IMG/VR virus record: IMGVR_UViG_3300028640_000004
Coordinates: 1 to 64,000 of that record
Source of the DNA: a virus
Taxonomy: Duplodnaviria > Caudoviricetes
Strand: one strand, 5' to 3'
Length of the DNA stretch: 64,000 nucleotides
In this document: positions 2,627-43,566 of the stretch, one piece after another
How the letters are laid out: each line of letters starts with the position of its first letter
Position numbering within the stretch: position 1 is the first letter of the stretch
Position numbers and translations under genes: made by a program
Notes under the pieces: model-generated
Told to the model about the DNA's origin: nothing
The model's database searches: none
The model's input: only the letters and a program-made list of their open reading frames with translations

Positions 2627-3628
2627 ATGCATTCAATAACTGGTAGATTAATAAATAATGCAACAGATCGTAAGATAACCTTTACGAATTATAAAATCTC
2701 AGATGAAGAGTTTGAAGAAGAGAATTTCGTAAAGATTACAATAATGAAGAAGGCTATGGAGGAAAATAATATTCCTCCTGAATTTATTGTATTATTAGGT
2801 AGTCCTGATAACTGGAAGTTAGAAATAGATAAAGATGAATTTGACGAAACTGAATCTAAGGTAATCAAAGATAGTAAGGCTTTTGAAAAAATAGTATTAC
2901 CTGAAGGTTATGAAGAAAAGATTATCGAAACAATATCCCAGATTAAATATCACGATAAGTTATTTAAAGAGTGGGGATTTGGTGAGACAATCAAGAAGGG
3001 TAAAGGTGTTAATATATTATTTACTGGTAAGTCTGGTACAGGTAAGACTTATTGCGGTGAATTGATTGCAGAATATTTAGGTTACAAGTGTGAGTTAGTT
3101 AGTTCAGCCACATTAGAAAGTAAATATGTTGGCGAGTCAGAAAAGAATCTTAATAACTTACTTAATTCTAATAGAAGTAAAGTAGTTGTCATAGATGAAG
3201 CTGATAGTTTCTTAAATAGTAGAGCTGATTCTCGTAATCAAACACACGAGAATAAACTTACTAATCAATTTCTTATTGAATTAGAAAGACATAACGGTAT
3301 AGTTATTCTTACTACTAATAAAGGTATATCATTAGACAAAGCTGTAGCTAGAAGGATTGATCTTATCCTAGAGTTTCCAGATCCAGATGAACAAGGAAGA
3401 ATAAAGATATGGCAAAGACATATCCCTAAGAAATTTCCTTGTGAAAAAATAGATTGGAATAAGATAGGAAAGTTCGAGATTAATGGTGGAAGAATAAAGA
3501 ATATTATTCTTTCAGCAGCTAGAAAAATGATAGCTAGAAATATAAAGAAACTTAATGAGAAGCTTCTGGTTGAATGTATTAATGATGACATTGATTCAGA
3601 AGATGCTCTTAAAAAAACATTTGCATGA
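2627..3628 (+). CDS. AAA+ ATPase (classical AAA clade)
   Basis: Walker A GKSGTGKT, SKYVGESEKN pore loop, Walker B VVIDEAD, SRH TTN...LDKAVARRI. Confidence 0.9.
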   Translation: MHSITGRLINNATDRKITFTNYKISDEEFEEENFVKITIMKKAMEENNIPPEFIVLLGSPDNWKLEIDKDEFDETESKVIKDSKAFEKIVLPEGYEEKIIETISQIKYHDKLFKEWGFGETIKKGKGVNILFTGKSGTGKTYCGELIAEYLGYKCELVSSATLESKYVGESEKNLNNLLNSNRSKVVVIDEADSFLNSRADSRNQTHENKLTNQFLIELERHNGIVILTTNKGISLDKAVARRIDLILEFPDPDEQGRIKIWQRHIPKKFPCEKIDWNKIGKFEINGGRIKNIILSAARKMIARNIKKLNEKLLVECINDDIDSEDALKKTFA

Positions 3629-13786: not shown

Positions 13787-13802
13787 ACGAAGATGTCTTC
13801 GT
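13787..13802. repeat. Dispersed palindrome copy 2: ACGAAGATGTCTTCGT
   Basis: Immediately after TAA; one central variant. Confidence 0.85.
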
Positions 13803-21964: not shown

Positions 21965-21994
21965 TTGACAGAAAATATTAGTTATAAATATAAT
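21965..21994 (+). promoter_or_regulatory. Sigma70-type promoter for scaffold/capsid
   Basis: TTGACA-N18-TATAAT; flanks TTTGACAGAAA and TATAATATAAGTAT identical to the 15321 promoter. Confidence 0.8.
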
Positions 21995-24097: not shown

Positions 24098-24105
24098 GAT
24101 TCAAT

Positions 24106-24153
24106 AAGTAAGCAGGTTGCATTATGGAGAGGTTCGAATCCTCTCCTTACTTC
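24106..24153 (+). ncRNA. tRNA-like mini-element (acceptor + T arm, no anticodon arm)
   Basis: AAGTAA/TTACTT stem stacked on GGAGAGG-TTCGAAT-CCTCTCC; short GCA-GGT-TGC hairpin as connector. Confidence 0.6.
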
Positions 24154-24154
24154 T

Positions 24155-24568
24155 ATGAAAATATATATTTACCCATTAAAGGGCTATGTAGCAGAGTTAT
24201 TATTATCTAGGTCAGTAGAGATAGCAGATGAAGGCGATTCATGTGATGTTTTATTCTATACAGGTAGTAGTATAAATGATCTTAGACGGCTTGTTAAAGA
24301 AACAAAATGTTCTTGTGTGGTATGTAATAATATAGAGCCGACTGTTTATGAGAATTTCTTCTGGATATATCATAAGCATATCGACTTGAATTCTCTTTTA
24401 AGTCCTGGTATCATAAGTACAAACAGTGATATTTTAGCTCAAGAACTTTATAGAATTCTTAGCATTCAGGCGGATATAGATTATAAACAAAAACCTGAAA
24501 AGGTTAAGTTCAATGGCAATCTATCTGATACATGGATTAAGATCAAGAAGATTATGCTATGGGCTTAA
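24155..24568 (+). CDS. Hypothetical protein
   Basis: ORF track. Confidence 0.65.
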   Translation: MKIYIYPLKGYVAELLLSRSVEIADEGDSCDVLFYTGSSINDLRRLVKETKCSCVVCNNIEPTVYENFFWIYHKHIDLNSLLSPGIISTNSDILAQELYRILSIQADIDYKQKPEKVKFNGNLSDTWIKIKKIMLWA

Positions 24569-40078: not shown

Positions 40079-40092
40079 CGAAGATATCTTCG
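40079..40092. repeat. Dispersed palindrome copy 5: CGAAGATATCTTCG
   Basis: Fills most of the 19-nt gap between stop 40076 and ATG 40096. Confidence 0.9.
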
Positions 40093-42726: not shown

Positions 42727-42819
42727 TTTGGAGCTTAGTGGGGCGGAGTACCACTCTTAATCTCTATATAAAGAACTTATATACAGGAAAGCAATCGGGT
42801 TCGACTCCCGACTCCAAGC
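42727..42819 (+). ncRNA. tRNA-like element with non-canonical central arm
   Basis: Acceptor TTTGGAG/CTCCAAG; D-like AGTGG-GGCGGAGTA-CCACT; TATATAA-AGAAC-TTATATA arm; T arm TCGGG-TTCGACT-CCCGA; no CCA. Confidence 0.65.
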
Positions 42820-43566
42820 ATGGCAAAAAGAAAGACATCAGAACAGGTACTGGTAGAGAATATATTAGACGGTAGAGAGGTAGAAGTCTTAAGTAGTAAG
42901 ATGATTAGAAAGACTAAGTATACCCAAGAAGCTTATGACATGAGTGTTGGGATACCAGGAACTGTACCAGAAAAGATTATTTATAACTACTTAACTGCTT
43001 CAGAAGTAGAGTTTTTCTTTCAGTATAATTATGCAGATAATAGAGTAACCGCATTACCAGAAGGTATGTGGATAGCAGACTTTTATTTACCGGCATATAA
43101 TATATATATAGAAGTATATGGAAATTATTGGCATTCAATAGATGAAACAGTTGATAAGGATTATCAGAAGAAGGCATTCTGGAATGCTATGGGACTAGAG
43201 GTTATTGATTCTTCTAGAGCAGAAGATCTAGTCCCATCAAAGACAGCACAAGTAGGTAAGGTTGTTATATGGTGGGAGAAAGATATCTATGCAGATGTGA
43301 GCGGTTTATTTGCTAGAGATTTACCAGAGATATCTGTTAGAAAGATTCCTGGTAAAGCTCATGAAGTAGGTTTTGATGCGATAGCAGAGATGGAAAAACG
43401 AGAACTTAATAGCAAGATACTTAAGCTTAGGAAGAGTAAGGCTCAGATTAAACCATTGAGACTAGAAGTTAAGAAGCTTAAGAAGAAGGCGATTAGTGCT
43501 AATTTCTTTGAAAGGAATATAGAGTTAATTAACACTACAAGAAAGATAAAAAGAAATGATTACTAA
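42820..43566 (+). CDS. PD-(D/E)XK endonuclease-like protein (Vsr/DUF559-like)
   Basis: EKIIYNYL...FQY...IADFYLP...YIEVYGNYWH...WWEKDI. Confidence 0.75.
   Translation: MAKRKTSEQVLVENILDGREVEVLSSKMIRKTKYTQEAYDMSVGIPGTVPEKIIYNYLTASEVEFFFQYNYADNRVTALPEGMWIADFYLPAYNIYIEVYGNYWHSIDETVDKDYQKKAFWNAMGLEVIDSSRAEDLVPSKTAQVGKVVIWWEKDIYADVSGLFARDLPEISVRKIPGKAHEVGFDAIAEMEKRELNSKILKLRKSKAQIKPLRLEVKKLKKKAISANFFERNIELINTTRKIKRNDY

Follow-up and report, generated by a model that had tools for sequence, protein, structure and literature searches.

It is established that RNase P (on the 5′ side) and RNase Z (on the 3′ side) read the acceptor/T top half and the elbow of a tRNA, and synthetic acceptor/T minihelices suffice as minimal substrates for RNase P, for the CCA enzyme and for some synthetases. 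In animal mitochondria, the excision of tRNAs sets both ends of the mRNAs, with 0–3 nt before the AUG, a form of punctuation known as the Ojala-Montoya-Attardi model. Plant mitochondria contain t-elements, non-decoding tRNA-like folds in transcripts that were found by the motif GGTTCRANYCC; their edges are the 3′ or 5′ ends of mRNAs, for which RNase P and RNase Z were held responsible, and non-templated C or CA is present on the pieces released (Forner et al. 2007, PMC1920247). At MALAT1 (mascRNA) and MEN-beta, the upstream RNA receives its 3′ end from RNase P, while RNase Z and CCA addition release the small RNA (PMC8457004, PMC11693755). A t-element of Haloferax volcanii is cut by tRNase Z to create the 5′ end of 5S rRNA (Hölzle et al. 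2008, as cited in PMC4326828), and t-elements are described in the citing article as substrates of both RNase P and tRNase Z. For the secG-leuU co-transcript of E. coli, separation depends on RNase P (PMC2241853). No phage case of such a tRNA-like punctuation element was found in the searchable literature.

The DNA analysed here (the window) comprises the first 64 kb of an uncultured-virus record, which measures 92,199 bp and has a G+C content of 33%. A tRNA-like element is located directly behind a gene whose product matches phrog_9953 (major head protein, E 6.9e-24) and has homologues named phage major capsid protein (Table 1). The sequence-only reading spoke of a downstream giant gene; the giant gene does lie downstream, behind the next ORF, a gene of 137 aa. 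No Pfam or PHROG family was matched by this ORF. Its product is predicted by AlphaFold (pLDDT 85) as a small, generic Rossmann-like alpha/beta domain, for which no specific structure was matched. The giant ORF has three matched LysM stretches, the best one N-terminal, and a DEDD-type exonuclease (RNase_T) domain at residues 1696–1868, and its orthologues in relatives measure 4752–4977 aa. Elsewhere, a palindrome CGAAG-RTRY-CTTCG is present at 467–480, 13788–13801, 40079–40092 and other positions, just 5′ of several start codons (e.g. ATG 492, 13813 and 40096).

Table 1. Features of the capsid gene junction and of other tRNA-like loci in the same genome.
Feature	Position	Strand	Basis or remark
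Major capsid protein gene, 417 aa	22844–24097	+	ORF list; stop TAA 24095–24097
Spacer from stop codon to element, 8 nt	24098–24105	+	Sequence
Acceptor-like stem, 5′ strand AAGTAA	24106–24111	+	Pairs with 24147–24152; double changes in 5 of 6 pairs among relatives
Insert, 14 nt, GCAGGTTGCATTAT	24112–24125	+	In place of D arm, anticodon arm and variable region; MFE fold
T-like stem, 5′ strand GGAGAGG	24126–24132	+	7 bp with 24140–24146; 5 of 7 pairs covary
T-loop TTCGAAT	24133–24139	+	TTCRAWT in all relatives
T-like stem, 3′ strand CCTCTCC	24140–24146	+	MFE fold, covariation, RNAalifold
Acceptor-like stem, 3′ strand TTACTT	24147–24152	+	MFE fold, covariation, RNAalifold
Discriminator-like C and one T, without CCA	24153–24154	+	Sequence; directly before ATG 24155
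137-aa ORF	24155–24568	+	Alignment of 8 orthologues; start MK(I/V)..YP conserved
Giant ORF, 4939 aa	24584–39403	+	Co-oriented, downstream of 137-aa ORF; LysM and DEDD-type exonuclease
Second tRNA-like element, 93 nt	42727–42819	+	Discriminator C directly before ATG 42820 (248-aa ORF)
79-aa hydrophobic, membrane-type ORF	complement 70667–70906 (L050 1249–1488)	-	After tRNA-Pro
tRNA-Pro, beyond the window	complement 70908–70979	-	Followed by CT, then ATG of 79-aa ORF
Phage tmRNA	complement 71368–71687	-	Tag ending in AA

At 24106–24152, 6 and 7 bp of an acceptor-like and a T-like stem form 13 stacked pairs, giving a 48-base RNA shaped as the top half of a tRNA. MFE folding of 24106–24154 returned precisely this fold (−14.4 kcal/mol, z −2.34), and 3 of 200 shuffles reached one as good. 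The insert consists of a mini-hairpin, GCA-GGT-TGC (24112–24120), and a linker ATTAT, and the GG-bearing mini-hairpin may complete the tRNA elbow. The T-loop with its flanks, GGTTCGAATCC at 24131–24141, matches the plant motif GGTTCRANYCC, with GGTTCAATTCC or GGTTCAAATCC as the equivalents in relatives. The element thereby has the architecture of a t-element, namely a T-arm with this motif and an acceptor-like stem stacked on it. Its existence at 24106–24152 is confirmed, as is each descriptive point made from the letters alone: a coaxial acceptor/T helix of about 47 nt and 13 bp with a TTCGAAT loop, a small GG-containing hairpin in place of the D arm, the absence of both anticodon arm and CCA, and a location from 8 nt past the capsid stop codon to 2 nt short of ATG 24155. 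A further hairpin, TTGAATC/GATTCAA, described at the stop codon, exists in the window as well, but relatives do not conserve it.

Relatives with capsid homologues at 70–89% identity were obtained from metagenome assemblies of digesters, sludge and wastewater. No relatives were detected by blastn in the phage and IMG/VR collections, and peptide-pattern scans and the exact T-arm pattern found none in these collections either. All relatives at 70–89% capsid identity keep the order of capsid gene, a gap of 54–76 nt, a gene of 134–137 aa and the giant gene, and the same element is found in every one of them, its sequence occurring in nine distinct versions. Covariation in related phages had been suggested as a check, and it was found: pairing is intact in 117 of 117 cells (9 distinct orthologous sequences × 13 pairs) and 10 of the 13 pairs show double compensatory changes. 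The covariation score was 0.596, against 0.288±0.035 in shuffles, none of 500 of which reached the observed value. Sliding the partner strand by 1–3 columns reduced pairing to 54–68%, and RNAalifold, unaided, returned the same 13 pairs. The acceptor-like stem occurs as AAGTAA/TTACTT, AGGTAA/TTACTT, GAGTAA/TTACTC, GCATAG/CTATGC, GAATAA/TTATTC or GAGCAA/TTGCTC. The T-like stem reads GGAGAGG, GGGAGGG, AGGAGGG, GAGAGGG or GAAGAGG, each time with its exact complement. One G-U pair, in L002 (AGGTAA/TTACTT), fits an RNA of the forward strand. The structure is under selection.

The stack is 13 bp in all nine types. Five of the seven positions of the loop TTCRAWT are invariant, and in the insert G7, GGT and one T (T17) are invariant in the nine sequences. 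The T-loop, the invariant GGT and the constant 13 bp are tRNA-specific features, none of which is needed by a plain hairpin. The mini-hairpin is less secure, since its stem covaries in L032 and L033 (GTT-GGT-AAC) but shrinks to 1–2 bp in L005, L006 and L007. The spacer behind the capsid stop codon measures 6–10 nt in relatives, with no conservation of its sequence, and the helix lies 1–3 nt from the ATG in eight of the nine types, the gap being CT in five types, CAT in one and T in one. In L005 an AT-rich insertion brings this gap to 24 nt, so abutment on the ATG is not obligatory. With a covariance model of the element (R1), a single copy was found in the 92-kb genome (65.6 bits) and relatives scored 61–71 bits; the next match, at 64491–64531 (13 bits), is an ordinary terminator.

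ARAGORN predicted no tRNA gene in the window and none at the matching site in nine relatives, in agreement with the expectation of the sequence-only reading that a tRNA finder would fail here or call a pseudogene. Rfam gave no tRNA-type match, neither at E≤10 nor at the gathering score. The element is not a canonical tRNA gene, its two helix halves being separated by only 14 nt. In phages, tRNA genes are common and the 3′ halves of tRNAs often serve for integration, and five tRNAs are present in this genome, which would suit a decaying tRNA pseudogene or a tRNA-derived attachment-site core. An intact tRNA at the junction in a relative, the observation that was to speak for simple decay, was looked for and was not found. 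Both strands of both stems covary, which excludes decay and a DNA-level att core: an attP core would comprise the 3′ part only, conserved as DNA with no selection on pairing, and here each stem retains its 5′ strand, in covariation with the 3′ strand. The length stays at 47–49 nt across 70–89% capsid identity, and an origin of this kind is extremely improbable. The tRNA-like domain of a tmRNA does not agree with the element either, as pair 3 is G-C (six sequences) or A-U (three sequences) and never G-U, and CCA is absent. A histidine-like identity, with a 13-bp stack and a G:C first pair, was also considered and rejected; the first pair in the window is A-U.

More distant relatives have another structure at this junction. 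In L030 and L024 (47–48% capsid identity), the 137-aa gene is kept downstream and a terminator, a hairpin with a T-run, is situated between the two genes. Because relatives at 47–48% identity have a terminator there, the tRNA-like element replaced a terminator in the ancestor of the clade. At 43–44% capsid identity, the capsid gene likewise ends with a terminator. A scan of a contig collection yielded one 2.5-kb contig, in which capsid identity is 43% and the terminator is a plain one; it is labelled uncultured archaeon, which says nothing about the host. At the place of the element, L030 (2450–2592) and L024 (2143–2247) contain two hairpins, CATGTC..GACATG followed by a G+C-rich stem with the T-run.

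This position raises the question whether the element remains on the capsid mRNA, either as a weak intrinsic terminator or attenuator or as a 3′ cap against 3′ exonucleases, without excision by RNase P. Such a cap would follow termination or a single 3′ cut, and the downstream 5′ end would play no role. The element sits exactly where the distant relatives have their hairpin and T-run, and like a Rho-independent terminator after a capsid gene it has the position seen in relatives at 43–50% capsid identity, a G+C-rich hairpin and lower downstream RNA. A loose terminator consensus is also passed by the T-arm GGAGAGG-TTCGAAT-CCTCTCC followed by TTACTTCT (5 T of 8), and the scan flags it as terminator-like. 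However, the tails of the element (TTACTTCT, TTACTCCT, CTATGCTT and TTGCTCTA) have 4–5 T in 8, against 6–8 in real terminators of the phage and its relatives. This T-poor tail is paired with the upstream strand, with covariation, while the loop is invariant and tRNA-like and a conserved insert of 14 nt is present. In a terminator there would be no call for TTCRAWT and GGT to be invariant, nor for the ‘T-tract’ to form a covarying helix with a strand upstream of it. A good acceptor/T mimic is moreover expected to be a substrate of RNase P, an enzyme nearly universal in bacteria, which counts against a cap that stays in place.

Metatranscriptome data bear on both possibilities. Among the runs listed (20 rows in all), 16 that are recorded as RNA contained part of the commonest relative. 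Four runs (X1–X4) were mapped as contigs on L019, in which the element spans 2762–2809 and the ATG is at 2811. In X4, an activated-sludge metatranscriptome, a contig of 991 nt with a depth of 28 ends at 2761 without a loose end; in X3, also an activated-sludge metatranscriptome, a contig with a depth of 27 ends at 2759 and continues with 29 unrelated letters. The stop in X4 is exactly at the predicted RNase P site and that in X3 is 2 nt short of it. Depth depends on the gene in both runs, with 2762–3093 uncovered, including the start of the 134-aa gene, and a depth of 0–2.6 over the downstream genes. X3 and X4 are filed under different study codes and may belong to one campaign. In X1 and X2, contigs cross the element at a flat depth of about 8–11 over all genes, and these runs are uninformative on processing since a flat depth is DNA-like. 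Beyond the element, depth is at least 10-fold lower than in the abundant capsid RNA contig that ends there. These contigs give a weak hint, both of an RNA boundary at the 5′ edge of the element and of this drop in RNA, whether the element is excised or capped. The drop in RNA depth of at least 10-fold across the element would also be expected of termination or a cap, and a folded 3′ cap closed to random primers would stop contigs at the 5′ edge as well. Weighing the poor tails and the tRNA-specific constraint, we judge it unlikely that the element stays on the capsid mRNA.

In all four runs mapped on L019, 69 nt at 1701–1771 (capsid residues ~67–90) were found to be swapped for 66 other letters. 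Capsid residues 67–140 match tail-fibre PHROGs. This variant and this match in the same part of the protein suggest that the capsid has a hypervariable insertion at its surface.

We favour, with a probability of roughly 0.55, that the element is a t-element-like RNase P/RNase Z punctuation mark in the late structural transcript. A processing signal that splits off the capsid mRNA had already been proposed from the sequence; the T-arm motif of t-elements, two further junctions of a tRNA or tRNA-like unit with an ATG (see below) and the contig stops on L019 lend it indirect support, although a contig end would fit an uncut 3′ cap, too. As proposed, the RNA of 24106–24152 would fold as an acceptor/T stack with its T-loop and be excised by host tRNA-maturation enzymes that read the top half. 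RNase P is predicted to cut at 24105|24106, which would leave the capsid mRNA with a 3′ end 8 nt past its stop codon. On the 3′ side, no CCA is present to block RNase Z, so an RNase Z-type cut is possible; it is predicted after C24153 (or 24152), the enzyme being assumed to be present in the host. As the stack is 13 bp and not the canonical 12, the exact cut sites are uncertain. The downstream message would be freed with a 5′ phosphate and 0–2 nt before AUG 24155, a near-leaderless 5′ end that would call for leaderless translation. In this clade, which has no ordinary terminator at the junction, the level of capsid mRNA could in this way be uncoupled from that of the 137-aa and giant genes. 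Excision would also remove a stable helix that otherwise lies over the ribosome landing site of a gene without a Shine-Dalgarno (SD) sequence. It counts against the proposal that the RNase P cut would leave an unstructured tail of 8 nt on the capsid mRNA, the stop-codon hairpin of the window not being conserved. Support is better for the RNase P cut than for the part played by RNase Z and for leaderless translation, and the identity of the acting enzymes, the 3′ cut and leaderless translation are presumed here.

The translation starts of the phage are relevant to this proposal. No SD motif was found before any of the ~70 gene starts in the window, and the upstream regions are AT-rich. The T-stem sequence GGAGAGG was considered as a hidden ribosome-binding site and ruled out, since the ~70 starts have no SD-like motif at the right distance; its SD-like look is irrelevant in a phage that does not use SD sequences. 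A perfect sigma-70 consensus promoter (TTGACA-18-TATAAT) is located at 21965–21994, 13 nt before ATG 22008. With a sigma-70 consensus and no SD, the host seems to use standard promoters but SD-independent initiation. A leaderless promoter spacing was rejected as a general rule, as the −10 boxes show no clear peak at 6–8 nt; single cases fit, e.g. 71788. The tRNA-shaped unit abuts a start codon that has no other ribosome-binding signal, L005 being the exception.

That arrangement could also make the element a translational brake, in which the 13-bp helix buries positions −2 to −15 of the 137-aa start and the likeness to a tRNA is incidental ancestry. The helix abuts the ATG in eight of nine types, and a stable helix should block initiation in a phage that relies on unstructured, AT-rich upstream regions. 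A brake leaves the invariant T-loop and the invariant GGT unexplained, however, L005 retains the element at 24 nt from the ATG, and an SD-like GGAGAGG offers nothing to sequester where SD sequences are not used. We regard a brake as very unlikely.

Punctuation by excision finds some parallels in two other junctions of the same genome. The second tRNA-like element, at 42727–42819, is a cloverleaf: its acceptor stem measures 7 bp, the ‘anticodon’ hairpin has a loop of just 5 nt, a D-like arm is present, and the loop of the T-arm reads TTCGACT. At the orthologous site in L036 (3895–4000), the acceptor stem is wholly different (GGCTGGT/ACTAGCC), while the loop TTCGACT and the C before the ATG are kept; the downstream protein in L036 is 42% identical to that of the 248-aa ORF at 42820. 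The other junction is that of the tRNA-Pro with the 79-aa ORF. No homologues of this ORF were found, so that this junction rests on the ORF alone. The tRNA-Pro belongs to a region at 70.9–75.6 kb with five tRNA genes (Pro, a Trp-like one with a long extra arm, Asn, Phe and Gln) and the phage tmRNA. None of the five tRNAs encodes CCA and neither does the tmRNA, and the host must therefore trim their 3′ trailers and add CCA. The discriminator is followed by CA in four of the six (Asn, tmRNA, Phe and Gln).

What becomes of an excised piece is a further matter. The 48-nt minihelix might be a putative stable, CCA-tailed RNA acting in trans, which would titrate or mislead a host factor that reads the acceptor/T half, such as a defence toxin modifying tRNA 3′ ends, a tRNA sensor, EF-Tu, the CCA enzyme or SmpB; its place after the capsid gene would then just ensure high late expression. 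This presupposes the same processing by RNase P and RNase Z and would thus add to punctuation rather than replace it. The conserved insert (G7, GGT and T17) exceeds what a bare cleavage signal needs, other non-canonical tRNA-like RNAs and a tmRNA are present in the genome, and mascRNA shows that a by-product of processing can persist. No aminoacylation identity is obvious, as G3:U70 is absent and a G-1:C73 pair is not conserved, the window having A-U as its first pair. Nor can anticodon nucleases be the target of an RNA without an anticodon loop; a decoy for these enzymes, which had been put forward as an alternative, is unlikely, there being no loop to cut. A function in trans seems quite improbable to us. 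The fullest version, in which the clade runs mitochondrion-like punctuation in a bacterial host with the smallest natural substrate of RNase P and RNase Z so far seen, a 48-nt top half with a GG strut, and also keeps the minihelix as a persisting, CCA-tailed decoy for host factors or defence toxins, is likewise a highly speculative extension and improbable.

Several differences separate the element from the systems described above. Like the plant t-elements it is a non-decoding tRNA-like fold inside a longer transcript and has the same T-arm motif. Those are organellar, imperfect cloverleaves of ~70 nt and mostly far from the start codon (cox1 −241), whereas the phage element is a 48-nt top half with a 6+7 bp stack at 1–3 nt from the start, its processing being a prediction. 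As in animal mitochondria, a tRNA-shaped unit is placed between two coding regions and its excision would define both mRNA ends. The mitochondrial units are real decoding tRNAs and leaderless translation is established there, while the phage unit cannot decode and leaderless translation is assumed. With mascRNA it shares a tRNA-like fold downstream of an abundant RNA; mascRNA derives from a eukaryotic nuclear lncRNA, is a cloverleaf with an equivalent of the anticodon arm and has a triple helix upstream, and no such stabiliser was seen in the phage. The t-element of Haloferax is a prokaryotic tRNA-like element 5′ of the next RNA as well, but it is archaeal and belongs to an rRNA operon, the downstream product being no mRNA. 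In secG-leuU, a bacterial mRNA is likewise joined to a downstream tRNA-shaped unit, which is a genuine tRNA at the end of the operon, followed by a terminator and not by a further gene. The tRNA-like domain of tmRNA and the minihelices have in common with the element an acceptor stem on a T-arm, a reduced analogue of the D-loop and no anticodon arm; the phage element differs in having no G3:U70, no CCA and no mRNA-like domain, and it is natural, not synthetic. It is set apart from all the named precedents by its occurrence in a phage of bacteria, by its 48-nt top half with a 6+7 stack, by its abutment on a start codon and by its having replaced a terminator.

If tRNA-processing enzymes cut at this site, the element would represent a natural minihelix used as operon punctuation in a virus of bacteria, and the acceptor/T top half alone would suffice in vivo. 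Phages would then be able to swap a terminator for a processing site and so set the ratio of capsid to downstream protein, and near-leaderless messages would be made through RNA cutting outside organelles. T-elements and mascRNA are described as already serving as RNA-excision parts in archaea and human cells (PMC4326828, PMC8457004). For bacteria, the phage element is a candidate part, compact and portable, with which RNA could be excised without a scar.
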